Shown: positions 5,596 through 61,726 of the stretch, piece by piece
How the letters are laid out: every line of letters begins with the position of its first letter
Position numbering within the stretch: the first letter of the stretch is position 1
Assembly: GCA_038134595.1 (NCBI GenBank)
Contig: JAYPVM010000001.1
Coordinates: 4,526-68,525, forward strand
DNA: 64,000 nucleotides
From: Pseudomonadota bacterium
Lineage (GTDB): Bacteria > Bdellovibrionota_C > UBA2361 > OMII01
Direction of reading: 5' to 3'
Program-made: the position numbers and the translations under genes
The notes under the pieces: generated by a model
The model's input: the letters and a program-made list of their open reading frames with translations, nothing else
The model's database searches: none
What the model was told of the DNA's origin: nothing

Positions 5596-5777
5596 GTAGA
5601 AACCTCCTTGATTCTCGCTTGATTGTGGGCAAACCAAGCTCTAGGTTTGTAACTCTCTAAAGAATACCATATCGCTTACTTGCTACTGTTATGATTATCT
5701 CCTGTGACGACGTGCTCTTAGCGACAACAACAACTTATGCTATTAAAATGGGATTATAAAAGCATAAGTTCAGGTGT

Positions 5778-38130: not shown

Positions 38131-38852
38131 TGATTGACGAAACAACCGTTCTCATCGGCGTCGGCCTTCTTGTCGGCTTTGTCAAAACCGGACTTCCCGC
38201 AGGAGGAATTTTTGTTCCTGTGCTCATGGCACTTGCCTTTCCGGCACGCGCTTCTGTGGCAATTCTACTACCGTATTTGATCGTTGGAGATGTAATCGCA
38301 GTCTGTCTCTATCGAAAAAAAGCAAATCTTCGAGAGGTCAAAAGAGTTTTTCCTTGGATCTTTGTAGGTATTCTTATGGGTGTCTGCATACTTGGCATTG
38401 TCAACGAACAGCTCTTCAAGACGCTCTTTGGTGGATTAATACTAGCTCTAATCGCATTCGACTCAGCACGAAGTGCTCTTAGAAATACAACGTTTCCAAC
38501 ATGGGCGAAGCGATCTCTTGGAGTAAGCGCTGGTGTCGCAACAGCGCTGGCAAATGCTGCGGGACCGCTCATGGCGGTATATCTACTTATCATGAAACTG
38601 GATAAACATGCATTCATGGGCACTACAGCGGTGCTCTTTTGCATAGTAAATATATCAAAGGTTCCATTCTATGCTTCTCTTGGATTGTTCCAGCTTCAGT
38701 ACGTGCTTCTTTGGCTCGTGAGCATCCCAGTCATTCTTATCGGTGCATTTCTAGGGAAGCTCTTCGTTGATAAAATATCTCAACGCACATTTTCTCTCCT
38801 GATCCGCGTACTTACTGTGGTGGCTGGGGGTATCCTGCTAGGGCTCATATAA
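38130..38852 (+). CDS. TSUP-family (TauE/SafE) sulfite/sulfur-anion exporter-like membrane protein
   Basis: 240 aa with about 8 TM helices and internal repeat architecture. Glycine-rich TM segments are typical of TSUP. The start overlaps the cysK stop (ATGA). Confidence 0.6.
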   Translation: MIDETTVLIGVGLLVGFVKTGLPAGGIFVPVLMALAFPARASVAILLPYLIVGDVIAVCLYRKKANLREVKRVFPWIFVGILMGVCILGIVNEQLFKTLFGGLILALIAFDSARSALRNTTFPTWAKRSLGVSAGVATALANAAGPLMAVYLLIMKLDKHAFMGTTAVLFCIVNISKVPFYASLGLFQLQYVLLWLVSIPVILIGAFLGKLFVDKISQRTFSLLIRVLTVVAGGILLGLI

Positions 38853-43492: not shown

Positions 43493-44014
43493 CTAGGAGC
43501 AGACCGCGTACGATGCTTGTAAGGTTGCAATTTTTCGTTTGAATCTTTTGCGTTGGGCTTTTTGCCTGTTTTTCAGGCTCTCCAAGCCGCGGGGAAAGGA
43601 AACCGAAAAAATAGCATCGAAAGCTTTGAGAAGCTTTTTCTTAGGCACACTCTGCACCTCGCAAGCCGACACCTCGTCGATATTGCAAGACGCATTTGAC
43701 ACATCAAGCTGTCCAAGCAAGGCTTTAATTCTACTCAGCGAGCGAGCTCCTCTTCGTAAAAATGTATCCGCAAAGTTTCTATCAGGGCGCCAAACTCCCC
43801 TATCCCGGAGCCTAACTGCTCTGTTAGAGATATTCGTAATCGTAGTTAAAGCCTGATTAAAAACATCGTCAATGGCAGATTGATCTACCGCTCCGCACTG
43901 AACCGCTTGAGCGCGCTGAACATCTTCCTGGGCATATACACAATGAGAAACTATCAACATAAGCACCATACAAAGAGTGCCCGTTATAACCCTTTTGAAT
44001 GTGACAATGTTCAT
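43493..44014 (-). CDS. Secreted hypothetical protein (173 aa)
   Basis: Signal peptide (LCMVLMLIVSHCVYA) and a basic C-terminus. Confidence 0.4.
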   Translation of the reverse strand: MNIVTFKRVITGTLCMVLMLIVSHCVYAQEDVQRAQAVQCGAVDQSAIDDVFNQALTTITNISNRAVRLRDRGVWRPDRNFADTFLRRGARSLSRIKALLGQLDVSNASCNIDEVSACEVQSVPKKKLLKAFDAIFSVSFPRGLESLKNRQKAQRKRFKRKIATLQASYAVCS

Positions 44015-45669: not shown

Positions 45670-47205
45670 TCAAGGCTTAAGAAATTGCAGCGTCTTTTTA
45701 AGACGACTATACAATACCTTTAGAAACACGAAAACACTTAGTTCATGACGACCCGAGCCGTTATTTCTTGAGATCGAGAAATCGATTTCTTCTTGTATAT
45801 CTGCACCCGCTACATTTCCTCCATTACTAAAACTATTTTCGTTGAATGCACTAAGCCTACCCTCGAACTCTTGCGTTCTTTGTGCAATCTCGGCCCGTAT
45901 ATTGAAATTAGATACCTCCTGCTTAACCTTCTCGATAGCCTCAAACAAACTCTGGGAGGCTGCTCGAACTCTCTCACAGGACAATCCACTTACATCCCTC
46001 TGATGGCGGTCGGACATCTCCCGCAATGCTTCCGCCAAGCAAATTAGGTGCTCTACCTCACTAAGTTCCTGATTATCCCGTATACCCTGGCTTCTCTCGA
46101 GATACGCAACAAGCAATCGCTCAAAGGCCTCAAGATCTGCTTCCTTGGGACATACGATCTCATCGAATTGCCAGTTACGAATCGAATGCATCGTAGTAGA
46201 CCAACTCTCAAGCTTTTCATGCACTCCCACGCTATTGTCTTCTGCCTTCACGCACGTATCGCCTATCAAGAACGTATGGAGCACGTGGCTTCCCATAGGA
46301 TTATCTCTTAGAGTAGAAAGGCCATCGGTAACTAACATCACATCAATACGGCGGGACTTAGGCCAAGTATCGAGGTCCGTAGCGGTAAACTCCAATGCCT
46401 CCTGAAGCTTCGTTGTCCCTATGTTTTCAAAGCCCATCAGCTCACGAGCTAGCGGCGCGAGCTCTTCTGCACTGTGTTTTGAACTAAGATTGCCTACCTC
46501 TGAATTAAATGGTCGAACATGCATCTCCGCGCCACGCTCCAAGGCATTGATGAGAAAAGCGAGGCCCAAGCCACGCGCCACAGCATTTCTCACATCCGGC
46601 TTGTATTCACCCTCTGGTATAGCTCCGTTCATAGATTGAGAGGTATCAAGAACTAGATACGCTCTTAATTCACTATGAGCTGTACTACCAAAATCTTCGC
46701 TGTCGCTCTGGGAGCGCTCATCTGGCAGTTCCTCAGTGCGGCTGGAACTCGGGTGAAGCATCGCGCGCTTCGATAGATTGCCATTGACTAATTGATACAA
46801 CAGAACATCATCTGGATAGCAACGCTGGTAGGGCAAAACAAATGGCAGATCGAAGACCCCTGCTCTGCCGATATCCATTCTCTCGGAAGGTGCGTTTGAC
46901 TTATGATGACTGGAGCCCTCTGGGAGTATATGAGTCACACCGGCATTATTATCATTCTGTACCACACCATCGCCTACGCCCTTTTCTTGCGTGGTCGGCA
47001 ACTTGATCTCCTCTACTACTCCCATCAACGATCGTGCTGCCAAGAAATATGCGAGTGCTTTTGGCGAAACTTCAGATAAGCTTACACCATAGCAATCCAC
47101 AAAGTCGGGCAATGGCAACCGCGCGGAACATTTTGGAAGTGCCGTATTGACCAAATCTTTTCTCTCAGCGTTATGCGAGCGCCCGGAGGGAAATTCGTAT
47201 TGCAC
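45670..47205 (-). CDS. von Willebrand factor A (vWA) domain protein, partner of the MoxR ATPase
   Basis: MIDAS motif LVLDTSQSM with downstream vWA elements (TDGLS). It starts 12 bp after the AAA+ gene stop. Confidence 0.7.
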   Translation of the reverse strand: MQYEFPSGRSHNAERKDLVNTALPKCSARLPLPDFVDCYGVSLSEVSPKALAYFLAARSLMGVVEEIKLPTTQEKGVGDGVVQNDNNAGVTHILPEGSSHHKSNAPSERMDIGRAGVFDLPFVLPYQRCYPDDVLLYQLVNGNLSKRAMLHPSSSRTEELPDERSQSDSEDFGSTAHSELRAYLVLDTSQSMNGAIPEGEYKPDVRNAVARGLGLAFLINALERGAEMHVRPFNSEVGNLSSKHSAEELAPLARELMGFENIGTTKLQEALEFTATDLDTWPKSRRIDVMLVTDGLSTLRDNPMGSHVLHTFLIGDTCVKAEDNSVGVHEKLESWSTTMHSIRNWQFDEIVCPKEADLEAFERLLVAYLERSQGIRDNQELSEVEHLICLAEALREMSDRHQRDVSGLSCERVRAASQSLFEAIEKVKQEVSNFNIRAEIAQRTQEFEGRLSAFNENSFSNGGNVAGADIQEEIDFSISRNNGSGRHELSVFVFLKVLYSRLKKTLQFLKP

Positions 47206-47217
47206 GCCGCCTCCCTC

Positions 47218-48579
47218 TTAATACTGCCCCTGAGTCACATCAGTGTCCTGCCCTTCAGCGGCCCTGCTTTGCTTTATTGCTTCTTGCACCGTAGCTCGGA
47301 GGTCGTCCCGATATCGCCTAAAATACGGTAACGATGGCTGCAATTTATCAAGAGCCGCAAGAACACCCTGATAAGAGCACTTCTGCGCGGAGGTAATCCC
47401 TAGAAACGTCAACAAATGCTGCGATAGCGTTAGTTTACAAAGCTCTTCTCCCCTCTCAATCAGTCGAGTCAGCTCTGTCAAAGATCCCAAAGTCGACACC
47501 ACGTTCGCCTCTCCGCCACTAGCGCTTCGCATAACCTCTGACCACGAACCCCTAAAAGCTTCTCTATCTGCTTCGCTCAGGTGCACAGGAACCAACAATG
47601 CAAGGCAAGAGAGATCATCTAAGGTAGCGGCTAATTGCCCCCGCAATAGTGCATGAGCTTTGATTATGCGCCCCATCTGCCGAAACGTTCTGCCGCTAAC
47701 ATCGACTGACGACTCTGATGTTCGACTGTTATACTCTGAAATAATTGCATCAAGATACATAGCAACATCATGTGAAAGATTCATTTCATCAACATGCCGA
47801 TTTATCGCTGATAATTCTGTGGTTGATATCTTTTGGGCCTCAGATATCGAAGGAACATCACAAAGAGCCTCTCGGTTCCGGAGAATAGCCTGTCTTTCGA
47901 TGGTAGAGAGATTGGGAGAAATTTCAGATTGAAATATAAACCGATCCAGGAAAGCCCCGGTTTTTTCATTCTTCCGAACATAATTACCACAGGCAATGAC
48001 TGTTCGAAGCGGTGACTGCACCATCTGATCGCCGTTCTTGTACCGTCTATCGGATAGCGTCCACAACAAACTACGGAGCAGTTCATCACGCCCATCGAAT
48101 ATCTCATCAAGAAAGGCCACCTCCGACGCGACTATGCCACTTTCAACATTTCGGCGGCCTGTTCCATCTTTAATACGGTCAAATGGAATAAACCCATATA
48201 ACTGGTCCTCTGTGGTCTCAAGCGTTATCTGGTTCTCGTAGCGTTTTACATCTGATGCAAACAAATTAAGCACTGCTCTTGCATAGTATGATTTTCCTAG
48301 TCCAGTAGGCCCCACCAGGAGGTGATGATTTCCGGTAGCTAGCGCCAACTGCGTTTGTACCATTACCTGATCATATCCCCTGACATATTTTGAAATATGC
48401 TCAAACCCTGCTTTCATTTTAGCAACAACTTGCTGAATGGAATGTGTTTCCCGCTCGCGGGAGTCTTGCAACGCGCATCTATCGATAGAGGGATGCAACG
48501 TAACATTCAAGTCAACTTGATCCGAACCAACTGGCGCACGGAGATGATAGTCCTCGTTAGGCATCTGTAATTGGGTCAT
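47218..48579 (-). CDS. MoxR-family AAA+ ATPase
   Basis: Walker A (LLVGPTGLGKS), Walker B (VAFLDEI) and sensor/arginine-finger regions. Single AAA+ module with a C-terminal helical extension. Confidence 0.75.
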   Translation of the reverse strand: MTQLQMPNEDYHLRAPVGSDQVDLNVTLHPSIDRCALQDSRERETHSIQQVVAKMKAGFEHISKYVRGYDQVMVQTQLALATGNHHLLVGPTGLGKSYYARAVLNLFASDVKRYENQITLETTEDQLYGFIPFDRIKDGTGRRNVESGIVASEVAFLDEIFDGRDELLRSLLWTLSDRRYKNGDQMVQSPLRTVIACGNYVRKNEKTGAFLDRFIFQSEISPNLSTIERQAILRNREALCDVPSISEAQKISTTELSAINRHVDEMNLSHDVAMYLDAIISEYNSRTSESSVDVSGRTFRQMGRIIKAHALLRGQLAATLDDLSCLALLVPVHLSEADREAFRGSWSEVMRSASGGEANVVSTLGSLTELTRLIERGEELCKLTLSQHLLTFLGITSAQKCSYQGVLAALDKLQPSLPYFRRYRDDLRATVQEAIKQSRAAEGQDTDVTQGQY

Positions 48580-48884
48580 GATTGATTTCTCCTTCCTGCC
48601 AATCGTCTGTATCCGAGACTATCAAATGATTCTGGACTATTAAAACCAAACAAGAATCTTGCTTTGCCACGCAAACAACAACCTCTCGATAAAGATAGAT
48701 TCGATCTCTTGAGTGCCCTAGAATTCTTACGCCCATTTCAATCGGAGCCAACCTGCAGGACAAAACAATGTCACAAACGTCAGACAAGTTGCCGCCTCCT
48801 CTGCATGGACGGTTCCACAGACACCAGACTAGAAAGTACGGGCTACTTCTTTCCATTTTAGGGCTATGGGTATACATTTCGCCC

Positions 48885-49754
48885 ATGGCTGACTCTATTA
48901 TCAACTCTCAATCTATCAATTCTGCGGACATTCTTTTGCTTGGCGCCTGTTACGATCTCACATCCAGCTTTGGAAAGGGTGCCAATCGTGGCCCCCAAGC
49001 TATCGTTGATACGCTTCATACCCAAATCGAGTTTCTTGACCGCGAAAGTCAAGTATCTCCGGCAGAGCACTTGGCTATTGCGTACAACGAGATCGAAGGT
49101 CTCCCTGATGCATCACCAGAGGATATGGTCTCCTCAATTGCCGCCCAATATGCTGAGCACTCATCGTCATTTAAAATCCTACTAGGAGGAGAGCATTCAG
49201 TAACAAATGGACCGTTACGCTATTTTGCTTCAGACGCTAGCGATATCACTGTTCTACAGATAGATGCCCACGCTGATTTGCGCTTCGACGATAGCGACTA
49301 CAACGATACCCCCTACGGTATATACGCTCATTCAGCTGTTATGAGACGAGGTCTTGAATTAGGATATAATATTGTTCAAGTCGGTCTTCGCGCCTTCTCT
49401 GCCGAAGAACAGAGCTTGTTTTCTCACGAGCGGATCACAGCACTCGAAAGAAGGCGACAAGAAATATCTCCGGAGGCGGTTCTTTCTCACATCAAAACCG
49501 ACAAAGTATACCTTACAATCGATCTAGATGGTTTCGATCCCAGTGTCATGCCTGCCACGGGCACTCCAGTACCCGGCGGTCTCGGTTGGTACGAGGGGCT
49601 CGATATTGCGCGAGCAGTTATTCAGAATCACTCATTAGTTGGATTCGATATTGTAGAACTCGCGACCCGATCGATAGACTCAATCACGCAATACAACGCC
49701 GCTCAACTTTGTTATTCACTAATTGCCGAACTGTATAAAAAAGGAGAAATATAG
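48885..49754 (+). CDS. speB: Agmatinase (ureohydrolase family)
   Basis: Arginase-fold motifs GGEHSVT, DAHADL and DLDGFDPSVMPATGTPVPGGL. I chose the start at MADSII... so that the conserved LLGACYD comes near the N-terminus. Confidence 0.8.
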   Translation: MADSIINSQSINSADILLLGACYDLTSSFGKGANRGPQAIVDTLHTQIEFLDRESQVSPAEHLAIAYNEIEGLPDASPEDMVSSIAAQYAEHSSSFKILLGGEHSVTNGPLRYFASDASDITVLQIDAHADLRFDDSDYNDTPYGIYAHSAVMRRGLELGYNIVQVGLRAFSAEEQSLFSHERITALERRRQEISPEAVLSHIKTDKVYLTIDLDGFDPSVMPATGTPVPGGLGWYEGLDIARAVIQNHSLVGFDIVELATRSIDSITQYNAAQLCYSLIAELYKKGEI

Positions 49755-49756
49755 AA

Positions 49757-51661
49757 TTGGAAGACCGGTGGAATATATCGAAAAGCGCCCAAACGTATCG
49801 ACTCGAAGCTTGGGGCACACCCTACTTTACCATAACCAAAGACGGGCATTTAAACGTTCAGCCCTCAGCCGACAATAAATCAATCGACCTCTACAAGCTT
49901 ACGAGCTCAATGGCACGCAGAGGAGTAAAAACTCCGATTCTATTTCGATTTGAAGGTATTATCTGGGACAGACTAGAGAGGATTTTTCAAAGCTTTGACA
50001 AAGCATGTCGCGAGTACGAATACGGGGGATCGTATCGATTAGCATTCCCGATTAAAGTCAATCAGCAACGACACGTCATCGACTCCGTTCGAAAGGCTCG
50101 CTCTGATGCTCGATTGGGTCTTGAAGTGGGAAGCAAGCCAGAGCTCGTTGCAATGCTTGCAGCGCATAACACTCCCGATTCGCTATTACTCTGCAATGGC
50201 TACAAGGATGACGAATATATCGAACTGGCTCTGCTTAACCGAAAGCTTGGTCGCCGAACTATTATCACGGTCGAGCAACTCCACGAAATCGATATGATCC
50301 TAGACGTTGCAAAGAAACTAGACGTCCAACCAGAGATAGGAATTCGGTTTAAACCCTCCGGAAAGGGATTCGGCCGGTGGGAGAGCTCGGCAGGGCCGAA
50401 GGCAAAATTTGGCCTCACAGCTCATGAAGTAGTACAGGCAATGGACCTCCTAAAACAGCGTGGTGCCGATGATTCCTTAAAGCTTCTACACTTTCATGTT
50501 GGCAGTCAAATCACCTCAATATCCGCTCTCAAGGATGTCCTACGGGAAGCCTCACAGATGTATACAGAGGTGGCCAAGGAATTTCCTAGCCTTTGCTTCT
50601 GGGATGTCGGTGGAGGGCTGGCTGTTGACTATGACGGCTCGCGCACCACATTTGATTCCTCAATGAACTATACAATCGATGAGTACGCTATGGACGTAGT
50701 TGCCTACATCCATGAGGCCTGCGAATCGGCAAATATTCCTGCACCCGACATTATTAGTGAATCGGGCCGAGCTATATTAGCCCATCACGCCGTCCTCGTA
50801 ACAGAGGTAACGGATGTTATGCTTAGCGAACCCGAAATGCCCGATGTAGACAATCCCCCGGGCTCTTGTAGTGAGCTACTCGAACTATGTGAAACCGCAA
50901 AAGAACTAACCCTTAAAAACTGTTTAGTATCTTTCCACGATATGCAAGATTCAGGTATTGCTATTGAACAGCTGTTTAAACTAGGGCAGATATCTCTCCG
51001 GGAACGGGCATTTGCACAACAAGTAATCTCTGCCAGCCGACGAAAGATTATAAACTTAAGCAAGCAACTCTCTCACATTCCAGAGGAGATAGCTTTAGCC
51101 CGCGAGAAAATGACTGATACGTATTTCTGTAACTTCTCAGTGTTCCAGTCGATTCCTGACTTCTGGGCAATCGGTCAGCTTTTTCCGACAATTCCGCTAC
51201 AACGGCTCGACGAAGAACCCACGCAACGAGGAATAATAGCAGACCTGACATGCGACAGCGACGGTAAGATCGATAAGTTTATCGATCTTCGAGATGTTGC
51301 TAACGCCCTGCCCCTTCATACGTTCCGTGAAGACGAGCCGTACTATATCGGCTTCTTTTTGGTCGGCGCATATCAAGAAATCCTAGGAGATCTTCACAAT
51401 CTTTTCGGAGATACCCACGCCGTTCATATTCATATCAATGAAGACGGATCATATGAAATCCCATCGCTCGTTGAAGGCGACACAGTTAAGGAGGTTCTTA
51501 AGTATGTTCAATACGACTCTGAAGAACTTGAGGAGCAAATTCGTACTGCAATAGATCTTGCATGTCGATACAAGGGTCTAAGTGATAGTGATGCCGCATA
51601 CATTAGAGCAAGATATCGCGATGCACTCGGAGGATATACCTACCTTGTAAAACACAACTAG
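49757..51661 (+). CDS. speA: Biosynthetic arginine decarboxylase
   Basis: SpeA-like N-terminus (YRLEAWGTPYFTITKDGHLNV), PLP-Lys region (FPIKVNQQ) and full-length collinearity. TTG start with a GGAGA ribosome-binding site. Confidence 0.85.
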   Translation: MEDRWNISKSAQTYRLEAWGTPYFTITKDGHLNVQPSADNKSIDLYKLTSSMARRGVKTPILFRFEGIIWDRLERIFQSFDKACREYEYGGSYRLAFPIKVNQQRHVIDSVRKARSDARLGLEVGSKPELVAMLAAHNTPDSLLLCNGYKDDEYIELALLNRKLGRRTIITVEQLHEIDMILDVAKKLDVQPEIGIRFKPSGKGFGRWESSAGPKAKFGLTAHEVVQAMDLLKQRGADDSLKLLHFHVGSQITSISALKDVLREASQMYTEVAKEFPSLCFWDVGGGLAVDYDGSRTTFDSSMNYTIDEYAMDVVAYIHEACESANIPAPDIISESGRAILAHHAVLVTEVTDVMLSEPEMPDVDNPPGSCSELLELCETAKELTLKNCLVSFHDMQDSGIAIEQLFKLGQISLRERAFAQQVISASRRKIINLSKQLSHIPEEIALAREKMTDTYFCNFSVFQSIPDFWAIGQLFPTIPLQRLDEEPTQRGIIADLTCDSDGKIDKFIDLRDVANALPLHTFREDEPYYIGFFLVGAYQEILGDLHNLFGDTHAVHIHINEDGSYEIPSLVEGDTVKEVLKYVQYDSEELEEQIRTAIDLACRYKGLSDSDAAYIRARYRDALGGYTYLVKHN

Positions 51662-51709
51662 ACAAACACTTAGCAACTTACTTTCACTATTAAACACGGA
51701 ACGAACACA

Positions 51710-52807
51710 ATGAAAAAGAAATACACAAAACTCTCAAAAGAACTCCGTAAATTCATAGTTCCTGAGAGTGATCTATCCTCTCACGGAAGACTCTCAACAT
51801 CCAAGGGAACAAAAACTGGTGTAGTATCATCATATGCTGAACGCACTCTACGGCATTGCAATGGGGGCGCAACGCTTCAATCAGCTTTGTGGCTTAAAGA
51901 GCATCTCGATAATGGTGGAAAACTTGTTGTAAGCGTTGCCGGGGCGCTCAGCTCATTTCAAGTTGGCATTATGCTCTCTGAGCTAATTCGTCAGGACAAA
52001 GTTCACCTTGTCTCCGCAACTGCGGCCAACCACGAAGAGTCTTTTTATAGATATGTGGCACACTCCCATTACGCCTATATTCCTCGTTATACAGAACTTA
52101 CTCCAGTCCAGGAAGCAGAGCTCCGTGATGCTGGATTAAGGCGGATTACGGACACGTTCCTACCAGAGGATGAGAGTGTGCGTATTATGGAGCCTCATTT
52201 GGTTAAGATGTGGCACGCGGCTCAACAAAATGGAGAGCGATACTTTCCTCACGAGTACTTCCGCAGGCTCTTTAAGGAAAAGCTCATCAAACCTGATTCT
52301 ATGGCAAACCCCGATGATTGCTGGACGTATGCAGCGTATGAAAAAGACATTCCTATTGTCATTCCAGGATTTGAGGACAGCACCATGGGTAACATCTTTG
52401 CGAGCTATACATACTCCGGAAAATACCGAAAAAATCCTGACGTTGTTTTCGAGCAAAATATCATGAAATCTGGGCTTGAATACTTTACCATGCTCTATGA
52501 CTGGTACGGAGACATCTCGAAAAAACATCCCGTTGCATTCTTACAATTAGGCGGTGGCATTGCAGCAGATTTTCCAATCTGTGTCGTACCCTCTATCAAA
52601 CACGACTTGCAAAAACACCGCGTGCGTGATTGGGCAGGATTTATAGAAATCGGCTCTTCTCCCATGTCGTACGGCTCCTACTCCGGAGCTGGTGGAAAAG
52701 AAAAGATTACCTGGGATAAGCTTTCAACGAAGAGCTATTATCAGATTATACAGAGCGATGTGACGGTTGTTTTTCCGTGGATAGCGGCGATCTTGTTAGG
52801 GCTATAA
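51710..52807 (+). CDS. Deoxyhypusine-synthase-like protein (probable homospermidine synthase-type)
   Basis: DHS-family pattern VSVAGALSSFQVG...LIRQDKVHLVSATAANHEE and a C-terminal GGGIAADFP...KH region. Confidence 0.6.
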   Translation: MKKKYTKLSKELRKFIVPESDLSSHGRLSTSKGTKTGVVSSYAERTLRHCNGGATLQSALWLKEHLDNGGKLVVSVAGALSSFQVGIMLSELIRQDKVHLVSATAANHEESFYRYVAHSHYAYIPRYTELTPVQEAELRDAGLRRITDTFLPEDESVRIMEPHLVKMWHAAQQNGERYFPHEYFRRLFKEKLIKPDSMANPDDCWTYAAYEKDIPIVIPGFEDSTMGNIFASYTYSGKYRKNPDVVFEQNIMKSGLEYFTMLYDWYGDISKKHPVAFLQLGGGIAADFPICVVPSIKHDLQKHRVRDWAGFIEIGSSPMSYGSYSGAGGKEKITWDKLSTKSYYQIIQSDVTVVFPWIAAILLGL

Positions 52808-53033
52808 CGGCATTTAATCTCACATCCATGCGCCGCAAACAACTAAAAATAGTACGTTTTTTACGGTTACCATTCCTGCCGCAAAACCGTTTCCCGTAGG
52901 GATAGGAGATCCCACTAGAGTGGTGTGGCTCATCCCCTGTAGGCTACATACAAATAACTTTGTGGCTGATGCTTCCCAGTGGGGTACAATGGTCAGAGAA
53001 CACTGATCTATTATATCAACCCGCATCAGCAAT

Positions 53034-54521
53034 ATGAAAGAAACTGGTATCATACCACCTCCCGATCCCTTTCAGGCCAGCAATCTCTCTAACGGGATGT
53101 GGTGTCGAAGCACCGCAAGCACAATCATTCACTCGCCATATACAAACACACCACTTTGCTCTGTAAGCTACGCCGGAGAATCGCTCATAGAGGAAACTAT
53201 CGCCTCAGCGAGTAATGCATTCAAGGAGTGGCGCCTTGTTCCAATAAAGGAGCGCTGTGCAATCTTACTCCGCTTTCGAGAACTTCTTCTTCGAGACATC
53301 GAGAGACTTTCAATAAGTGCAAGCCTTGAATCAGGAAAAGTTCTTGCAGAAGCTCGCGCGGAGGTCCTTAAAGGCATCGAGGTCTTAGAATTTGCCACCA
53401 GCCTCCAAAATACAGACTATGGAGGGAGTCTAGAAGTAAGTCGCGGAGTGACCTGCGAATACCGACGCGAACCCCTGGGAGTAGTGCTCGGCATTACCCC
53501 GTTTAACTTTCCAGCGATGGTTCCTATGTGGATGATTCCCATTGCAATTGCGGTCGGAAACGCATTTATTTTAAAGCCCTCCGAAAAGGTGCCCTATACT
53601 GCTTGTATTTTGGGAGAGCTTTTAGTTGAGGCTGGCCTTCCATCGGGTGTCTTTTCAATTCTTCATGGAGATAAAGAAGTAGTAGAAAAGCTAGCTTCTC
53701 ATCCGAACATTTCAGCGGTTGGTTTCGTCGGCTCTACCTCCGCCGCTAGAGCTGTATACAAAAAAGCAACTCAAGCAGATAAAAGAGCCCTCTGCTTAGG
53801 GGGCGCAAAAAACCATATTATCGTTGTCCCGGATGCTCCACACGACCTTACAGTAGATGGGATTGTAGCTTCCTACACAGGTTGCGCTGGTCAGCGATGT
53901 ATGGCCACAAGCGTTCTCGTATGCGTCGGAGATACATCAAAAATTATCGATGATGTTATTCTTAAATCCAAGAGACTTCGTCTTGGCGAAGATATGGGCT
54001 GCCTTATCGACACGCAGGCCATTACTCGACTCCGAGACGCTCTCGACATCGCAAGCGAGCAGGGCGCAGAGATTCTACTCGATGGAAGACAAGGTGAAAA
54101 CGATATACCAACACTATATAAAAACGGAAATTGGCTCGGACCATCAATACTCGACAACACCTCTCAAAATATGGACTGCGGATGTACCGAACTATTTGGG
54201 CCTATTCTCTCAATCACACATGTAGATACCCTCGACGAAGCGCTTAAACTCGAACATAGGTGTCCATACGGCAATGCAACGTCGGTGTTTACTACAAGTG
54301 GCAATGTCGCCCGTCACGTAGCACACAACGCCTCATCAGGCATGATTGGTATAAACATCGGCGTTCCCGTTCCCCGAGAGCCGTTTTCTTTTGGTGGAAC
54401 CAAAGGCTCAAAATTTGGTCACGGCGATATCACTGGTACGGATGGAGTGGATTTTTGGTCGACGAAGAAGAAGATCACAACGAAATGGAGCAAGCAAACC
54501 GACAAGAACTGGATGTCATAG
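53034..54521 (+). CDS. mmsA: CoA-acylating methylmalonate/malonate-semialdehyde dehydrogenase
   Basis: ITPFNFPAMVPMWMIPIAIAVGNAFILKPSEKVP is nearly identical to the MmsA signature. Catalytic Cys region GQRCMA. Confidence 0.85.
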   Translation: MKETGIIPPPDPFQASNLSNGMWCRSTASTIIHSPYTNTPLCSVSYAGESLIEETIASASNAFKEWRLVPIKERCAILLRFRELLLRDIERLSISASLESGKVLAEARAEVLKGIEVLEFATSLQNTDYGGSLEVSRGVTCEYRREPLGVVLGITPFNFPAMVPMWMIPIAIAVGNAFILKPSEKVPYTACILGELLVEAGLPSGVFSILHGDKEVVEKLASHPNISAVGFVGSTSAARAVYKKATQADKRALCLGGAKNHIIVVPDAPHDLTVDGIVASYTGCAGQRCMATSVLVCVGDTSKIIDDVILKSKRLRLGEDMGCLIDTQAITRLRDALDIASEQGAEILLDGRQGENDIPTLYKNGNWLGPSILDNTSQNMDCGCTELFGPILSITHVDTLDEALKLEHRCPYGNATSVFTTSGNVARHVAHNASSGMIGINIGVPVPREPFSFGGTKGSKFGHGDITGTDGVDFWSTKKKITTKWSKQTDKNWMS

Positions 54522-54541
54522 GTTTTATCAAAGGTCCTCAA

Positions 54542-55807
54542 ATGGGTAGTGAAAAAAAGCCGATCAAACCAATAATCCTAACCTCTCATCCAGCTCGAGA
54601 TGAAGCCTTACTGCATCCGATTCATTGGGGCGCTCCAACGGCGCACGAACGCGGGCCAATTGTGGGTGGAATCGCTGATTCACATCATCGAAATTGTATC
54701 GGAACTCACTCTGGCTCATATTCAGTGTATCGTGCTCTTGCAGTTGCCTCGGGGGCTCTAAAATCAGACCATATACCTGATCTAACAGACACGCGCCCCG
54801 TGGTGTCGGTCGGGCCCTTTGATAGCTGGAAGAATTCGCAAAGGATAATCTCAATCGACCCATGGGGCGCCGAAGTAGATCGACACTTCTCGCACCTAAG
54901 TAGTAGCGGCGTTCACGCGCAACCCACCATCGCCATCACTCAGGCTCACATATCAATCCCTGAGATAGTTACTCTCGTCGATAACAAGAAGATCCGTGCC
55001 GACGGCTGTGTTATACAAGAAGACGGAGATTGTTTCGTTACAAAAGCCGCCATTGAACCCGTCTGGTACCTACCTGCCATTGCACAGCGCTTTAAGATCG
55101 AAGAGAGTGATTTACGACGTGGGCTCTTTGAGCAAACCGCTGGAATGTTTCCCGAGCTTATTACGCGGCCAGACCTCTCTGTTCTTCTGCCCCCAATAGG
55201 AGGTCACACGGTTTATTTTTTCGGAGATCCCGAACTCATCCGAGATCCCTCCAAAGAGGTGACCGTTCGAGTCCATGATGAATGTAACGGCTCTGACGTA
55301 TTCGGTTCAGACATCTGTACATGCAGGCCCTATCTAATTCACGGAATTGAAGAATGTATCCTGACAGCACAAGATGGAGGTATCGGCATTATCGTTTACA
55401 ATAGAAAGGAGGGGCGCGCACTCGGAGAGGTCACGAAGTTTCTGGTATATAACGCACGAAAGCGTCAGGAAGGCGGAGACACCGCCGACAAATATTTTCA
55501 CCGAACAGAGTGCGTAGCAGGTGTTCAAGACATGCGATTTCAAGAACTCATGCCAGATGTTCTTCACTGGATAGGGATAACAAAAATAGACCGTTTTGTT
55601 TCCATGAGTGATATGAAATACGACGCTATAACCAACTCGGGCATACAAATCCTCAAGCGCGTCTCTATACCAGCAGATAGAATCCCCGCCGATGCGCATG
55701 TAGAAATTCAAGCTAAACGAGCGGCCGGCTACTTTGTCGAAGAAGCAAAACCGACAAAAAAAGAACTTACCACCGTAAAAGGGCGCTCAATGTCTATAAA
55801 AAAATAA
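54542..55807 (+). CDS. GTP cyclohydrolase II-like protein with an N-terminal extension (URC1/urg1-type)
   Basis: The C-terminal half has the RibA Zn-binding arrangement (VRVHDECNGSDVFGSDICTCRPYL) and downstream RibA-like motifs (YNRKEGRALGE). There is a roughly 200-aa N-terminal extension. The longer ORF from 54260 overlaps mmsA and is not credible; I start at the ATG at 54542. Confidence 0.7.
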   Translation: MGSEKKPIKPIILTSHPARDEALLHPIHWGAPTAHERGPIVGGIADSHHRNCIGTHSGSYSVYRALAVASGALKSDHIPDLTDTRPVVSVGPFDSWKNSQRIISIDPWGAEVDRHFSHLSSSGVHAQPTIAITQAHISIPEIVTLVDNKKIRADGCVIQEDGDCFVTKAAIEPVWYLPAIAQRFKIEESDLRRGLFEQTAGMFPELITRPDLSVLLPPIGGHTVYFFGDPELIRDPSKEVTVRVHDECNGSDVFGSDICTCRPYLIHGIEECILTAQDGGIGIIVYNRKEGRALGEVTKFLVYNARKRQEGGDTADKYFHRTECVAGVQDMRFQELMPDVLHWIGITKIDRFVSMSDMKYDAITNSGIQILKRVSIPADRIPADAHVEIQAKRAAGYFVEEAKPTKKELTTVKGRSMSIKK

Positions 55808-55831
55808 TACGTATACGCAGGACAAACCTCA

Positions 55832-57046
55832 ATGAGTGAAGACATTAAGTATCTCCTTACCCCTACTGCCATTCGAGAGCGCTCGAATCAGATCTTAGCC
55901 CTGGCTAAAAATGATCTCTTAAACCACTTTAGTTTGCACGAAGATCAGATTCATTACCTTTCTAGAGCGCTCTTAGAGGAGATACATCAGAACTATCCTG
56001 AGCGAAATATCCCCTATCACAGCAGATGGCGGCATTTCTCCGTGGATGGATCCAACAGAATCGACAGGCTCAATTCATCGCTAGAAGGGCTATCCTCTAT
56101 GGAAGCCTGCATGGCAAAACTGGAACTTACAGTTATAAGTGTTCTCCTTGATGCCGGCGCCGGAAACTCGTGGAACTACATCGACAAAGCAACCGGAAAG
56201 ACCTTCGCTCGCTCAGAAGGTCTAGCCATAGCATCACTTAATGGATTTGCATCCGGAGCATTCGGAGAGAGGCCCTTTACGGCTTCTGCAGATAGTTTGC
56301 GTGCCATCTCTGTAGAGAGTCTTGAGCAGATATTCCAAGCGACTTCATCTAATCCCCTGGCTGGAGTCGATGGTCGCGCCGCTCTCATGAATACCCTCGG
56401 TGAGTGTGCGCGAAGGATGCCGTGCGTTTTGCCCTCTACAACACCCCGACTTGGAAATATATTAGGAGAAATACTCGAGCAGACTACAGAAAACATCCTC
56501 GATGCCGAGGATCTACTCGCTATCGTACTAACAGCCTTCGGCTCAATCTGGCCTGGCCGACTACTCGTTGACGGCGTTGCTCTCGGTGATGTCTGGAAGC
56601 ATTCACAGGTGAGAGGCGAGGGTAAAACTGACAAATTAGTGCCCTTCCATAAACTTTCACAGTGGCTTACTTACTCGTTACTCGAGCCACTTGAAAGTTT
56701 TGGAATTCAGATTGTAGGCCTTGAAAAGCTGACGGGCCTCGCGGAATACCGCAACGGCGGACTCTTCATTGATGCCGGGGTTATCGCACTTCGAGAGTCC
56801 GATAGCTACCGTATCGAACATTCTCCCTCCTCTGAACTTATCGTTGAATGGCGAGCGTTAACAATTGCTCTTTTAGATCGGCTCGCCTCACAGCTCCGCG
56901 CTGATTTAGGCGTTTCTACCGAGGAAATGCCGCTTGCAAAGATCCTACAAGGAGGCACGTGGAGTCTGGGAAGGAAATTTGCTAACCGAGCCCGCACCGA
57001 TGGCAGTCCTCCTTTAGCGATTAAAAGTGATGGCACCGTATTTTAA
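55832..57046 (+). CDS. Conserved protein of unknown function, candidate URC4/urg3 (DUF1688) equivalent
   Basis: 404-aa ORF tightly packed between the RibA-like gene and upp. The family assignment is inferred from gene order and size only. Confidence 0.5.
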   Translation: MSEDIKYLLTPTAIRERSNQILALAKNDLLNHFSLHEDQIHYLSRALLEEIHQNYPERNIPYHSRWRHFSVDGSNRIDRLNSSLEGLSSMEACMAKLELTVISVLLDAGAGNSWNYIDKATGKTFARSEGLAIASLNGFASGAFGERPFTASADSLRAISVESLEQIFQATSSNPLAGVDGRAALMNTLGECARRMPCVLPSTTPRLGNILGEILEQTTENILDAEDLLAIVLTAFGSIWPGRLLVDGVALGDVWKHSQVRGEGKTDKLVPFHKLSQWLTYSLLEPLESFGIQIVGLEKLTGLAEYRNGGLFIDAGVIALRESDSYRIEHSPSSELIVEWRALTIALLDRLASQLRADLGVSTEEMPLAKILQGGTWSLGRKFANRARTDGSPPLAIKSDGTVF

Positions 57047-57061
57047 AATAAAAGGATTACT

Positions 57062-57700
57062 ATGAAAAAATCACACGCCTTAACTGTTGTCTCTCATCCA
57101 CTCATTCAACATAAACTCACTCTCATGCGAAAGGAAGAAACCCCTTGTTCGGAATTTCGCATGCTCCTCAAGGAAATCAGCCTCCTGCTTGCCTATGAGG
57201 TAACCAGAGACCTCGAGCTTACAAGCATAGACATCAAGACTCCAATTCAATCCATGAAGGCTCCCGTAGTCAAAAATACAGAGATCACCCTGGTGTCGAT
57301 TTTACGAGCGGGAAATGGGTTGTTAGAGGGAATGCTTGAGCTGCTCCCATTTGCCCGAGTTGGTCATATCGGTCTTTATCGAGATCCCGCAACGCTTGCT
57401 CCAGTTGAATACTACTTTAAGATGCCACCTCAGATATCGAAGCAAGGCATCATCGTAGTGGATCCAATGCTTGCCACCGGAAACTCAAGTATAGCAGCAA
57501 TAGCACGGATTAAAGAAAAGACTCCTCAATCTATTAAATTCATGTCTCTACTAGCAGCGCCTGAAGGTATCGAGCTTATGCAGCAGGAACATCCGGACGT
57601 TCACATTTATACCGCCGCTATTGATACATGCCTAAATGAACACGGATACATCACTCCGGGTCTTGGAGATGCTGGAGATCGCATCTTTGGAACGCGGTAA
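57062..57700 (+). CDS. upp: Uracil phosphoribosyltransferase
   Basis: The C-terminus [30 protein letters not shown] is nearly identical to E. coli Upp. PRPP-binding loop [11 protein letters not shown]. Confidence 0.95.
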
Positions 57701-57733: not shown

Positions 57734-58855
57734 TTATCTCGACTCAAGCAACTCGTCGATAATGTGAGGCTGACGACTGGGCTCCTCATCCCATTGGTCA
57801 CTCCATAAGTGAAGCACCTGGGTAGCCCCATGTGCTTTAAAGAGCTTGTCCTGAAACACATCTCTTCCTGAACCTCGCTTTCCGTCAGGACCTATTGAGC
57901 TATGGAAAAGATCTCCGTCACATTCAACGACAATTTTCTTCCTGTCTTTTGTGACGATAAGATAATCTGCCGCCACAAGTGCCATGAGCGGCTGCTCTAT
58001 TAATACATGTCCTCTTGATTCACAGTAGCGCCTCAGGGCATCTCCAACACTTTTCTCAAAGCGGGTATTACCATAGTAATCCTGTTGTCTTTCGAAGCTC
58101 TGCAATTTATCGACATAGGCCATCTCCTCTGGCTTAATAACCTCAGCCACAATCAAAGAGTGATAAATGAGTGTCCAATTTTCCTTTGAGAGGTCTCGTG
58201 AAAGATCTTGTTCTCTGACAACTTGATCCAGACGTTCTGGGTAGTCTTTAGCAATTGCCCATGCTGTTTGCGCCAACGTCGTTTCATCGAGACAGCCCAT
58301 TTTAGAAGACCGCCTCTCTTTCGTTATTTCGTTGATACTCTGCTTGGCAAGTTCTCGCGATTGAATGTCGAGATGTGCGGAAGCAAATAGCAGTTGGCTA
58401 AAGTCTCGAGATGAAGTTTTTCTATCGCTCTTCAATCGTTCAAAAGATCTTTCAAAAAATTGGCAGTGTCTGTAACCGATATGCGAAAAGTCGCTGCATA
58501 GGTCTATAACATTGCGACAATTGTACCGACCGGTGTTTCCTAGAAAGTGATCCGCTACTTGCCCTAAGACTCTCTGAAAGGAGGATTCAAATCTTACCAT
58601 GCGATCTTCCTCGCACAATCCTCGTAACGCCCTTACGATGCGAGAACTAACCACTGGCATCTTTTTAAAATTGGGCTTGGCGAGGTACAAGCGATAGGTG
58701 AGCGCTAAGTACTGTACTCGGTCAAGCACCTCAAGCGATCTATCTTGCACAATTTCCGATACTTTGTCTGAGATCAACGCGGGATTACTTGGCAAGTCAA
58801 AGCTTACTCTTGCTGTAGGAGGCGTTGGTAATGTGTCACGATGGAATTGTTGCAT
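57734..58855 (-). CDS. Protein with a C-terminal RAP/DUF559-like PD-(D/E)xK-fold domain and an N-terminal helical region
   Basis: C-terminal pattern SVGDALRRY...HVLIEQPL...ADYLIV...KIVVECDGDLFHS...GRDVFQDKLFKAHGATQVLHLWSDQWD matches the RAP / DUF559 (Vsr-like) nuclease fold. The ORF-track start is TTG; I chose the in-frame ATG at 58855 (MQQFHRD). Confidence 0.55.
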   Translation of the reverse strand: MQQFHRDTLPTPPTARVSFDLPSNPALISDKVSEIVQDRSLEVLDRVQYLALTYRLYLAKPNFKKMPVVSSRIVRALRGLCEEDRMVRFESSFQRVLGQVADHFLGNTGRYNCRNVIDLCSDFSHIGYRHCQFFERSFERLKSDRKTSSRDFSQLLFASAHLDIQSRELAKQSINEITKERRSSKMGCLDETTLAQTAWAIAKDYPERLDQVVREQDLSRDLSKENWTLIYHSLIVAEVIKPEEMAYVDKLQSFERQQDYYGNTRFEKSVGDALRRYCESRGHVLIEQPLMALVAADYLIVTKDRKKIVVECDGDLFHSSIGPDGKRGSGRDVFQDKLFKAHGATQVLHLWSDQWDEEPSRQPHIIDELLESR

Positions 58856-59146
58856 TACTCGAGTATACAACTGGTAGCAATCTTACTCCACATCACCCCA
58901 AGACTATCCATATACCTGAAATTAATTGCTATTTTCTAAACATATCATCTATGCTGCCAGTCTCCTAAGCAGCTCTCTTGGAACCCTTTACCTCGGGCAC
59001 CCATCTTCAAGCTTGTGAAAAACCTGCAAATAACTTGATTTAAGGACTATCGTGACGGAGATTTCTACTACGAAATAACCACAGACCCCTTGCATTCGTC
59101 TTTAGAAACAGTCCTCGGCTACTGCGCGACTACCTTGTTTAGTCTC

Positions 59147-61726
59147 CTAACACCAATACGGTGAGGCATCCCCGTTAGAATCAAGCAATTCCAAGTGTTT
59201 TAGCAAGTCACTTATCGCAGGAGAATTTATAAATTCGATAAGGGCACTTTGGTCGCCATGGAGCAATGTATTAAAAACCAATCCCTGAAACTCCTCGGCA
59301 ATATCCTCATGAGCAATAGAATCTGGCAAGAATGTTTGACTTCGGGGATGATCAAAAACTCTCCGAAACACTCGCGCCATCTCCAAGCGAGCCTCTCTAA
59401 CAGTATCTGATGGAGTTAACAGAAAGCCTCCCAACAATACCGATATCCCGCTCCGACATTCCTGCTCGGACGCTTCAGGTAAATCTTTTACGAGAAAGCT
59501 CTTTGAATATTCAAGTAAAGCATCAAAAACCAAGGAGCGCAGGCCAGAATGAACTTGAAGCTCTTCCCGTCTAATCGCATCAAAAAACTGACTTAAGAAC
59601 TCCCTTCTTGCCGGGCTTTCAGGATCTCCGATTAATCCATCAGACCACAACTTCAATCGCTTCGCATACCACGGCTGACTTAATGCCGATACGTCATTGC
59701 CGCCCATTCCATGTTGCGCGCGCAGAACTCCGTAGCCAGACAGTGTACAGGCTTCAAGATATTTCATTATCGGTACCGGAAGCGAGTCCTTCACGTGGCC
59801 TGGGCTTGCATCATAAATCATCTCGGCAGCAACACTAGCCTCGAATTCCGACTGAACATCGTGCAGAGAAGTTCCTTCTACCTTTACAAGCGAGAGAGCA
59901 TCATCTAACTGTTTGTTCGTAGACGCTATAAAATCGCTCGCATATGAGGCGACATCTAACCTTGAGCGTCGAAATACCAAGCCAAGGCAATGAGCCTGTG
60001 CTAGCTCATGTTTTTGCATAGTAGAGAGCAGTCGACCAGCCTCCCTTGCTCCAGCATATGAAGGAGGAAGGATCTCGTCGTCTTGACTTGGCTTGCCCAC
60101 ACGCCTCTTTATGAAAGTATCAGCATGAAACAGTGCATCAAAAACATGTGCCACCCCGAGAACAAACTTTCCCTCTATCGCTGTTTCCTGCGTAGGACGA
60201 ATAAGCACGGAAATCCCAGCACTATATGACCTTAAGGTCTCCTCGAGTTCCTCTCTCTTTATCATATCATATGATTCAAGTTCTCGAGGAATTCTTCTAG
60301 CCAGCTTTTTCGAGGCTTCCAAAAATCCATCTGCAATAATTGATTGATTGCCAGCGATATAATCATCAACTGGATAGCGACAGATATCGGAACACTCACA
60401 TACGTCTTCAGGAAAAAACAATCTTAGGTTTAGAGCGCTCTGTAGATCTCCATTTGCTATAAACTTATCAAATAACGGCAGTAGGGTCCTATCGGCAAAA
60501 GACTTTCCTGACCTGTTAGTAGATAAGTACTCATCTAAAAAGATTCCACTGCGTTCGGCTACTTCACAAGCAGTTCGGGTGAAATCTAGTGGAAGACTGG
60601 CACCACTTTCCTTACATCGGAGAGCGGTACATAAAATTTCAAGTGTATCAGCATACGAGCGACCTAAGGCCTTCTGTAAGTATTCCCTAAATCTGGCCTC
60701 ATAATATTCTATTGGATCGACCTTGTAGTCCATTCTCTGCTGTGTAGTTTTTGGCGCAAGCCTGCAAAAAACTGGATCCAGCATAAGATTCTGCTCTTTA
60801 TAGGAAAGATACTGGCAGAATACAGACATACTGTCATAGAGCTCTTGTAGCTCTGTCTCAATCTGCATATCAAATGTCGGCGAGACACTACTCTGGCCTT
60901 GCGCTCCAGCACTCGAGGACAATGCCTTCTGCATCGTCTGCAATCTTTCCCTACTAGCCTTGAGGGCTCCGTCAAAAAATTGCACCGCTGACTCTATTGG
61001 AATCCCCCACGAAAGGTCTTCTCTTACTTCGTCCGAGCAAGCCTTCCACAATGAAGGTGGTAAAAAATAACCTTCTGTAGTGAGGTCCTGAGCAGTCTCA
61101 AGGAGCTTATGCTTATCTGCACTCATTTCCGCAGTAGTTGTATCTGCAATAGAAATCAGGGGATCTGTAAACCCCAATGCTTCCTGATACGCATGCGGTG
61201 ACGCGCTAAATAGCGGGTCTCGATAGCCCCAAATAACAGAGCGACTGGCTAACATCTGCCACTCATTGAGTGCTTCTTTGTTCATTTTCTGACAAAGATT
61301 GCGGGCCACCGGTTGCAGCCTTTCAGCATATTGGCCCCCTTGAAATCGGTGAAACAGAAGTGGGGCTAGAAGAGTCGGCGCCAAATGCTCGGCCACAACA
61401 CTATTACTCAGCATCGCATCAATAAAATTGCCGTGCCTACATATGAAAACATCAAGATCCTCGACGTCATATGAAGACTTCTCTAATTCTGGTGCATTGA
61501 GCGCTAGCCCGATGAGCTTTCGAAGCGGCGTATCCTCGGCCCTCTGCTCGATTTGGTGTGCTGGAGCTGGAATCCGAACAAGAGCCTTCATGAGATCGGC
61601 AAAAGGAGCACTAGCACCCGTGATAGAAGTAGCTACTTGATAAATATCACTTAGGTACTCTAACACCACAGCTTGGGTATCGCGCGTTGCGCGTGGAGAC
61701 TTTTTACGGGACTGCTCGGGATTCAT
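59147..61726 (-). CDS. Large hypothetical protein (859 aa), orphan
   Basis: Long ORF with no recognisable motif. Confidence 0.5.
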   Translation of the reverse strand: MNPEQSRKKSPRATRDTQAVVLEYLSDIYQVATSITGASAPFADLMKALVRIPAPAHQIEQRAEDTPLRKLIGLALNAPELEKSSYDVEDLDVFICRHGNFIDAMLSNSVVAEHLAPTLLAPLLFHRFQGGQYAERLQPVARNLCQKMNKEALNEWQMLASRSVIWGYRDPLFSASPHAYQEALGFTDPLISIADTTTAEMSADKHKLLETAQDLTTEGYFLPPSLWKACSDEVREDLSWGIPIESAVQFFDGALKASRERLQTMQKALSSSAGAQGQSSVSPTFDMQIETELQELYDSMSVFCQYLSYKEQNLMLDPVFCRLAPKTTQQRMDYKVDPIEYYEARFREYLQKALGRSYADTLEILCTALRCKESGASLPLDFTRTACEVAERSGIFLDEYLSTNRSGKSFADRTLLPLFDKFIANGDLQSALNLRLFFPEDVCECSDICRYPVDDYIAGNQSIIADGFLEASKKLARRIPRELESYDMIKREELEETLRSYSAGISVLIRPTQETAIEGKFVLGVAHVFDALFHADTFIKRRVGKPSQDDEILPPSYAGAREAGRLLSTMQKHELAQAHCLGLVFRRSRLDVASYASDFIASTNKQLDDALSLVKVEGTSLHDVQSEFEASVAAEMIYDASPGHVKDSLPVPIMKYLEACTLSGYGVLRAQHGMGGNDVSALSQPWYAKRLKLWSDGLIGDPESPARREFLSQFFDAIRREELQVHSGLRSLVFDALLEYSKSFLVKDLPEASEQECRSGISVLLGGFLLTPSDTVREARLEMARVFRRVFDHPRSQTFLPDSIAHEDIAEEFQGLVFNTLLHGDQSALIEFINSPAISDLLKHLELLDSNGDASPYWC

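Follow-up and report, generated by a model that had tools for sequence, protein, structure and literature searches.

Gene content of the locus

The stretch of DNA analysed here (the window) comprises 64,000 nucleotides of contig JAYPVM010000001.1 (assembly GCA_038134595.1, positions 4,526 to 68,525) from an uncultivated Gram-negative bacterium. Between positions 53034 and 57700 it carries four plus-strand genes, mmsA, urcA, URC4 and upp (Table 1), which probably constitute a chromosomal operon for URC-type catabolism of uracil, i.e., its breakdown at the nucleotide level by a route that is neither reductive nor oxidative. The gaps of 15–25 bp given in an earlier sequence-only reading of the locus proved exact (20, 24 and 15 bp), and because of this short intergenic spacing the four genes are likely to be co-transcribed. 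Ribosome-binding-like motifs (AGGA, AAGGA or AAAGG) precede each of the three internal genes, urcA, URC4 and upp. The start of urcA was placed at the ATG at 54542; a mechanical list of open reading frames (ORFs) uses an upstream in-frame GTG at 54260, which overlaps mmsA, and the 421-aa product of urcA is also called by gene callers on near-identical contigs. The spacer upstream of mmsA measures 226 bp, and a convergent gene ends 33 bp past upp. No further copy of any of the four genes, upp included, and no second ribA was found within the window.

Table 1. Coordinates of the predicted uracil-catabolic operon and of other features in the window
Feature	Position	Strand	Length	Remarks
mmsA, CoA-acylating malonate/methylmalonate-semialdehyde dehydrogenase	53034-54521	+	495 aa	TIGR01722, PDB matches
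urcA, URC1/urg1 homologue, predicted UTP cyclohydrolase	54542-55807	+	421 aa	PF12471 + PF00925
URC4/urg3 homologue, DUF1688	55832-57046	+	404 aa	predicted Qng1-like N-glycosylase
upp, uracil phosphoribosyltransferase, URC6/urg2 counterpart	57062-57700	+	212 aa	TIGR01091
Candidate operon promoter block	52952-52990	+		conserved in 4 sequences, inferred function; TACAAT at 52985-52990
Agmatinase, speA and deoxyhypusine-synthase-like genes	48768-52807	+		trio just upstream of mmsA
MoxR-type ATPase and weak-VWA protein genes	45670-48579	-		
Gene with weak REase_MTES_1575 match	57734-58870	-	378 aa	C-terminal match
Gene without Pfam or NCBIfam match	59147-61726	-	859 aa	
Fused cysN/cysC and cysD-like genes	10626-13531	-		sulfate activation
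Sulfatase gene	7530-8957			
TauE exporter gene	38130-38852			
ORFs without Pfam match	393-2192 (+), 3862-5637 (-), 9033-9665 (+), 25421-25924 (-), 34802-35257 (-), 43493-44014 (-)		151-599 aa	six putative genes

The four predicted proteins

The urcA product contains a GTP_CH_N domain (PF12471, residues 10–198, E = 1.7e-72) and a GTP_cyclohydro2 domain (PF00925, residues 222–374, E = 3.5e-15), and scores 713 bits against NF005536. It is 64% identical over 407 of its 421 positions (E = 2.4e-176) to the proteins of PDB entries 7EJ3 and 7EEV, which were deposited under the name "GTP cyclohydrolase II" and which we take to be products of the UTP cyclohydrolase study. It fails the ribA models, with 50.8 bits against a cut-off of 205.85 for TIGR00505 and 62.5 against 148 for NF001591, and in the catalytic domain shares only 28% identity with E. 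coli RibA. The zinc triad C248/C259/C261 and Tyr303 align with C54/C65/C67 and Y105 of RibA; the counterpart of RibA Arg128 is ambiguous, Q329 being aligned and R332 lying nearby. The assignment of this protein to the URC1/UrcA type and not to RibA, as the sequence-only reading had it, is therefore supported. UTP cyclohydrolase activity is predicted by orthology to a characterised enzyme: the available text of PMC9499338 describes UrcA as a UTP cyclohydrolase that hydrolyses UTP in two steps during uracil breakdown, and cites a 2022 mechanistic study. The earlier proposal of ring opening at the nucleotide level accordingly stands as far as the nucleotide is concerned, and is refined by that source to the level of UTP (PMC9499338).

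The upp product was identified by a UPRTase domain (PF14681, E = 1.5e-74), passes both TIGR01091 (272.3 bits, cut-off 208.35) and NF001097 (279.8 bits, cut-off 114), and matches E. coli Upp from end to end at 50% identity. Yeast URC6 is itself a uracil phosphoribosyltransferase (UPRT) of the FUR1 type, and on this basis a lone housekeeping upp would not count against a role in the URC pathway.

The product of the first gene carries an Aldedh domain (E = 3.5e-117) and passes TIGR01722, the model of the malonate/methylmalonate-semialdehyde dehydrogenases (MMSDH or MSDH), with 467.9 bits at a cut-off of 448.5. Its top ten PDB matches are all MMSDH/MSDH structures (E = 1e-94 to 1e-110), while other aldehyde dehydrogenases (ALDHs) match at 1e-57 or weaker, so that more than 35 orders of magnitude separate the two groups. 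In alignment, it has the same GAKNH and AGQRCMA (Arg-Cys) motifs as ALDH6A1. From work on B. subtilis MSDH, the QRCMA motif holds the catalytic cysteine, preceded by the arginine that binds the substrate carboxylate, and GAKNH replaces the ELGGK general-base motif of hydrolytic ALDHs. The family assignment of MmsA is strong, and its predicted tie to the URC pathway comes from conserved synteny.

The third protein is a full-length DUF1688 protein, as the sequence-only reading had suggested (PF07958, E = 3.1e-135, profile positions 1–420 of 420), and its close bacterial homologues carry the NCBI name "URC4/urg3 family protein". Sequence searches of the PDB with a DUF1688 profile returned no match even at E = 10. 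An AlphaFold2 model built from a 22-sequence alignment reached a predicted local distance difference test score (pLDDT) of 92.4 and a predicted template modelling score (pTM) of 0.92, and Foldseek searches with it gave a best match at E = 3e-10, all matches below 1e-3 being DUF2419 entries. The model is thus strong evidence that the protein shares the fold of the Qng1/DUF2419 N-glycosylases. Weak matches to the Q_salvage profile of this family were also found in 11 of 22 DUF1688 family members, in two colinear stretches, the best at 22.1 bits (E = 1.3e-4). Qng1 acts on queuosine-5'-monophosphate as a metal-independent N-glycosylase and frees queuine; it has a helix-hairpin-helix lysine (K199) and an aspartate (D231) followed by a ribose-stacking tyrosine (Y232), and its C-terminal carboxylate belongs to the active site (PMC9881137). 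Tagging at the C-terminus inactivates the enzyme. DUF1688 and URC4 are not mentioned in the available text of that paper (PMC9881137), no statement of a URC4-Qng1 relationship was found in the literature searchable here, and the same literature yielded no definition of the biochemical function of URC4.

A profile search of 1.84 billion representative sequences found 3344 DUF1688 clusters, and residue conservation was taken from an alignment of the best 150 of these. Among these 150, nearly all end at one position with ...SDGTVF, the terminal phenylalanine being present in 98%; D314, R341, D253 and R182 are invariant, and R307, E339 and W340 are 98–99% conserved. The spacing between R307 and E339-W340 is 32 residues, the same as that between K199 and D231-Y232 in StQng1, a correspondence that is hypothetical and based on spacing. 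The candidate conserved residues are R307, D314 and E339-W340-R341. In L. kluyveri, URC4 is reported to degrade ribosylurea to urea, according to the available text of PMC7530994. With this yeast work and the Qng1-like fold combined, the most economical reading is that URC4 would be an N-glycosylase that frees urea from ribosylurea and regenerates ribose-5-phosphate, the substrate form probably being ribosylurea 5'-phosphate.

Conservation of the gene cluster

A DUF1688 profile scan of one genome per species of the GTDB returned at least 593 loci; the 80 best were retained, and the four window proteins were then searched by tblastn against 8 kb on either side of each. Gene linkage was taken from tblastn, as a separate clustering of neighbouring ORFs suffered in part from the long antisense ORFs that occur in high-GC genomes. 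A URC1 homologue directly precedes the DUF1688 gene in about 70 of these 80 loci, and the URC4 homologue is followed by upp in about 55; the clusters come from cyanobacteria, alphaproteobacteria, Legionellaceae (Tatlockia), Bdellovibrionota and Myxococcota. The best of the 80 encodes a URC4 only 54% identical to that of the window. The MnmG of the organism shares 52% identity with its E. coli counterpart, which makes a gammaproteobacterial origin unlikely, and MnmG homologues with 77–94% identity include entries labelled "Pseudomonadota bacterium". Seven metagenome contigs from the lineage of the window carry the operon too, with URC4 identities of 57–94%, and where these contigs are long enough the wider synteny is kept as well.

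In 10 of the 80 loci, mmsA lies immediately upstream of URC1 in the same orientation, giving the four-gene order of the window. Three of these (L005–L007) are the closest relatives of the window and are labelled unclassified, Bdellovibrionota or Pseudomonadota; four more (L016, L023, L043 and L075) are labelled Bacteriovorax/Halobacteriovorax, except for L023, which is labelled Deltaproteobacteria; and the remaining three (L060, L064 and L078) belong to Archangium, Vitiosangium and a "delta proteobacterium". Trees of URC1 and of URC4 built by neighbour joining place the ten on three separate branches, namely the window's group, Bacteriovoracaceae and Myxococcota. With the same order in seven metagenome contigs and in ten species-representative genomes, the four-gene arrangement is not due to chance. 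Across loci, MmsA identity drops from 76% to 52%, and the ranking of the loci is broadly that seen with the other three proteins, as expected of a unit inherited together. Among the best 80 loci, the named genomes with mmsA at the head of the cluster all belong to Bdellovibrionota/Bacteriovoracaceae or Myxococcota, groups known to prey on other bacteria.

Two variants of the cluster were seen in the same set of loci. In L016 (8431–9048), L023, L043 and L075, a uridine kinase gene of the PRK family (E = 2.7e-38) follows upp, so that the Bacteriovorax/Halobacteriovorax-type loci form a five-gene mmsA-urcA-URC4-upp-udk array; its presence suggests that uridine, besides uracil, could feed the pathway. 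In Microcoleus and related genomes (L017, L026–L028, L031, L035, L036 and L039), about 1.2 kb containing a class III adenylate/guanylate cyclase gene parts URC1 from URC4, and just upstream of URC1 is the gene of an Amidohydro_1/3 protein whose motifs suggest a possible cytosine deaminase. QueC is found near the URC genes in five loci of the Microcoleus type.

Upstream region and candidate promoter

A block of the form AAATAAC(T/C)TTGTGG-N19-TACAAT, with TACAAT some 45 nt ahead of the mmsA start codon, is common to the window and three of the compared loci (L001, L086 and L088), in which the rest of the 226-bp spacer diverges. This conserved promoter-like block was found only upstream of mmsA and is a candidate promoter of the four-gene transcript. 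Rfam searches of the whole window at gathering thresholds gave no matches, and no known riboswitch was detected; searches of the 5' region at E values up to 10 returned just two matches, both at chance level. The 233-nt upstream RNA is not unusually structured (folding z = -0.55), and no inverted repeats were found in 52700–53100, so no obvious operator is present. Downstream of upp there is only a weak 3-bp stem with a T-run. No Shine-Dalgarno-like motif lies ahead of the mmsA ATG (53000–53033, ...TATATCAACCCGCATCAGCAAT ATG), unlike the three internal genes; the TATATCAACC stretch before this ATG is also kept in L086 and L088.

Proposed pathway of uracil breakdown

The reading of the locus as a URC operon draws support from the domain and family thresholds, which all four proteins pass, the orthology of UrcA, the published work on the pathway, the conserved synteny, the short intergenic gaps with their ribosome-binding-like motifs and the promoter-like block upstream of mmsA. 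Those checks suggested with the sequence-only reading that were run all favoured it. In the proposed route, Upp, whose family assignment is strong, would join uracil and phosphoribosyl pyrophosphate (PRPP) to give uridine monophosphate (UMP). As ring opening is placed at the level of UTP, housekeeping kinases are needed between Upp and UrcA: UMP would be converted to UTP by a UMP kinase and a nucleoside diphosphate kinase encoded outside the window. UrcA, a RibA-related zinc hydrolase, would by orthology act on UTP, opening and cutting its uracil ring through two hydrolytic steps. The end products in yeast and the chemistry of RibA suggest that C4–C6 would be released as malonate semialdehyde, and that N1-C2-N3 would stay on the ribose as ribosylurea phosphate. 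URC4, as judged from its fold and from yeast genetics, would cleave the N-glycosidic bond to give urea and ribose-5-phosphate, which could be recycled to PRPP. MmsA would convert malonate semialdehyde, CoA and NAD+ to acetyl-CoA, CO2 and NADH, so that the C3 fragment would serve as a source of carbon and energy, or be detoxified, instead of undergoing the yeast-type reduction to 3-hydroxypropionate. The enzymes of the Upp, UrcA and MmsA steps are identified by family membership or orthology, and we infer the connection of the MmsA step to the pathway.

By a rough estimate, each uracil broken down in this way consumes about four phosphoanhydride bonds. The addition of MmsA could repay this cost in carbon and energy; alternatively, the enzyme could remove a reactive aldehyde. 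If URC4 is a glycosylase, it would close a catalytic ribose-phosphate cycle into which PRPP enters and from which ribose-5-phosphate leaves, and the mmsA-headed variant would turn uracil into acetyl-CoA, CO2, NADH and urea instead of scavenging nitrogen. The joint proposal, in which URC4 is a Qng1-like, metal-independent ribosylurea-5'-phosphate N-glycosylase and the mmsA operon is a carbon- and energy-yielding variant of URC, is a tentative one, and we would lean slightly against its holding in every part. Should it hold, prey RNA would supply abundant uridine nucleotides to the predatory groups that carry the mmsA-headed order.

Weighing the alternatives

Several points weigh against the URC reading, in which we nevertheless place good confidence. 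The locus is known here from its sequence alone. Among the window ORFs scanned there is no urease, urea amidolyase, uracil transporter or regulator, and no kinase gene occurs in the operon or the 64-kb window; the "self-contained" module of the sequence-only reading is therefore too strong a description, as genes for urea utilisation, phosphorylation and transport are all missing from the operon and window. In the other 70 of the 80 loci, cyanobacteria, alphaproteobacteria, Tatlockia and Sandaracinaceae among them, no mmsA homologue lies within 8 kb on either side. The margin by which MmsA passes TIGR01722 is narrow, and the MMSDH family is multifunctional, acting also in valine, beta-alanine and inositol catabolism. 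The window URC4 misses the Q_salvage threshold (PF10343; 12 bits, cut-off 25), and the UrcA product, and hence the true substrate of URC4, may differ in phosphorylation state from the form proposed here. Scans for consensus promoters and terminators performed no better than on shuffled sequences and did not pick up the conserved block upstream of mmsA.

Some of these points bear directly on the possibility that mmsA is a bystander, sharing a promoter with a urcA-URC4-upp module by an accident of gene order while the dehydrogenase serves valine, beta-alanine or inositol catabolism or aldehyde detoxification. The many functions of its family, the narrow TIGR01722 pass and the majority of URC clusters that lack mmsA nearby are all compatible with this, and its absence from the cyanobacterial, alphaproteobacterial and Tatlockia clusters indicates that mmsA is accessory to the pathway. 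It is nevertheless an unlikely explanation of the present locus: mmsA directly precedes urcA on the same strand in three divergent branches, its identity across these lineages (51–63%) co-varies with that of the other three genes, it lies only 20 bp from urcA in the window, and no mmsB, iol or beta-alanine aminotransferase genes adjoin it. Malonate semialdehyde is moreover the chemically expected C3 product. The sequence-only reading had proposed that mmsA supplies the step for the C3 product, and this proposal is backed by the conserved adjacency. Also unlikely is a seven-gene operon, of which the four genes would be the tail and to which the polyamine genes upstream of mmsA would be tied via urea or nitrogen metabolism. 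All seven genes do lie on one strand, the neighbourhood is kept in L001, L086 and L087, agmatinase also releases urea, and the 226-bp gap holds no convincing terminator. However, the polyamine genes are not beside any other mmsA-URC locus (L005–L007, Bacteriovorax and Myxococcota), and the 226-bp spacer, which contrasts with the internal gaps of 15–24 bp, holds the conserved TACAAT block. As the polyamine genes are limited to the window's lineage, they do not appear to be part of the module.

A reading of the cyclohydrolase as a GTP cyclohydrolase II of the riboflavin pathway with an extra domain, and of the cluster as a combination of pyrimidine salvage and cofactor synthesis, is very hard to sustain. 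It could appeal to the name "GTP cyclohydrolase II" given to the family by the PDB depositors and by NF005536, and to the RibA-like zinc site and Tyr105 equivalent. Against it stand the wide failure on the ribA equivalog models (50.8 bits where TIGR00505 requires 205.85) and the low identity to RibA (28%), and in the 80 loci the cyclohydrolase always travels with DUF1688 and never with rib genes. The literature, furthermore, gives UTP hydrolysis to UrcA.

Neighbouring genes in the window

The polyamine trio just upstream of mmsA encodes an agmatinase, a biosynthetic arginine decarboxylase (SpeA) and a deoxyhypusine-synthase-like protein. The latter (365 aa) scores far below all the NCBIfam cut-offs, with 66 against 304 bits for dhys and 64 against 450 for the homospermidine protein, and could represent an uncharacterised aminobutyl-transferase that acts in polyamine synthesis. 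Its L086 counterpart nevertheless shares 91% identity with it, while the genes flanking that counterpart are only 45–60% identical. Upstream of the trio, on the opposite strand, are genes for a MoxR-type AAA+ ATPase (bpMoxR domain of the MoxR-vWA-beta-propeller ternary systems, E = 2e-24) and a 511-aa protein with a weak VWA match. On the other side of the operon, the 378-aa protein has a weak C-terminal match to REase_MTES_1575 (21 bits, cut-off 38) and the 859-aa protein matches no Pfam or NCBIfam model; both are syntenic beside the operon in L086–L088, with identities of 38–49%. Elsewhere in the window, a fused CysN/CysC protein (GTPase and adenylylsulfate kinase, 664 aa) and a CysD-like PAPS_reduct protein make up a sulfate-activation pair, a sulfatase and a TauE exporter are encoded, and six ORFs have no Pfam match at the thresholds used (Table 1).

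Significance and comparison with known systems

URC is one of four known routes of pyrimidine-ring degradation and the least understood of them. The pathway and its bacterial gene cluster are already known: clustering of URC1, URC4 and UPRT and its conservation in bacteria were reported by Andersen et al. in 2008, as cited in the available text of PMC3869809, which also gives URC1 and URC4 as required for the conversion of uracil to urea and 3-hydroxypropionate. The need for URC1, URC4 and URC6 in this conversion is described for L. kluyveri in PMC7530994, and in S. pombe uracil induces three neighbouring genes, the cyclohydrolase-like urg1, the UPRT-like urg2 and the DUF1688 gene urg3 (PMC2174524), in accordance with the family assignments made for them in the sequence-only reading. 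That reading had called the module poorly characterised biochemically, which is outdated for the first enzyme, UrcA, and for the known bacterial clustering; from what could be found in the literature searchable here, in vitro characterisation is limited to the first, ring-opening enzyme of URC. The mmsA-headed architecture is a modest but recurrent variant, and no description of it was found, the primary papers on URC lying outside the literature searchable here. Its recurrent mmsA-urcA-URC4-upp order offers independent genomic support for malonate semialdehyde as the bacterial C3 product and suggests a version of URC that yields acetyl-CoA. The most useful new lead is the match between the DUF1688 and Qng1 folds, which turns a domain of unknown function into a testable enzyme hypothesis with named conserved residues.

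The fungal URC systems (URC1/URC4/URC6 of Lachancea kluyveri, urg1/urg3/urg2 of S. pombe) consist of the same three families, are likewise clustered and produce urea and a C3 compound. Unlike them, the window locus, a predicted bacterial operon, lacks a URC2 transcription factor, and neither a urea amidolyase (URC3,5) nor a permease is encoded nearby. The fungal end product is 3-hydroxypropionate, malonate semialdehyde being reduced by URC8 in yeast, whereas the window locus has a CoA-acylating malonate-semialdehyde dehydrogenase. Bacterial UrcA (7EEV/7EJ3) has the same two domains and Cys-x10-Cys-x-Cys zinc motif as the window protein, which is an orthologue with no substantive difference. 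UrcA shares with RibA its catalytic-domain fold, zinc ligands and Tyr105, and both are hydrolytic ring-openers that act on a nucleoside triphosphate; UrcA differs in its extra N-terminal domain of about 200 aa and in acting on a pyrimidine and not a purine. URC4 is only 16–18% identical to Qng1/QNG1 (DUF2419, PF10343), falls below the Pfam threshold of that family and is about 80 residues longer, and urea would be the leaving group of its reaction in place of a 7-deazapurine. The Rut pathway of E. coli (rutA–G) resembles the proposed route in breaking down uracil non-reductively via malonate semialdehyde and in needing an enzyme that disposes of the aldehyde. Rut, however, acts on the free base by means of a flavin monooxygenase, releases ammonia and carbamate, and shares no protein families with the window locus, and it reduces malonate semialdehyde to 3-hydroxypropionate, where MmsA would oxidise it to acetyl-CoA.

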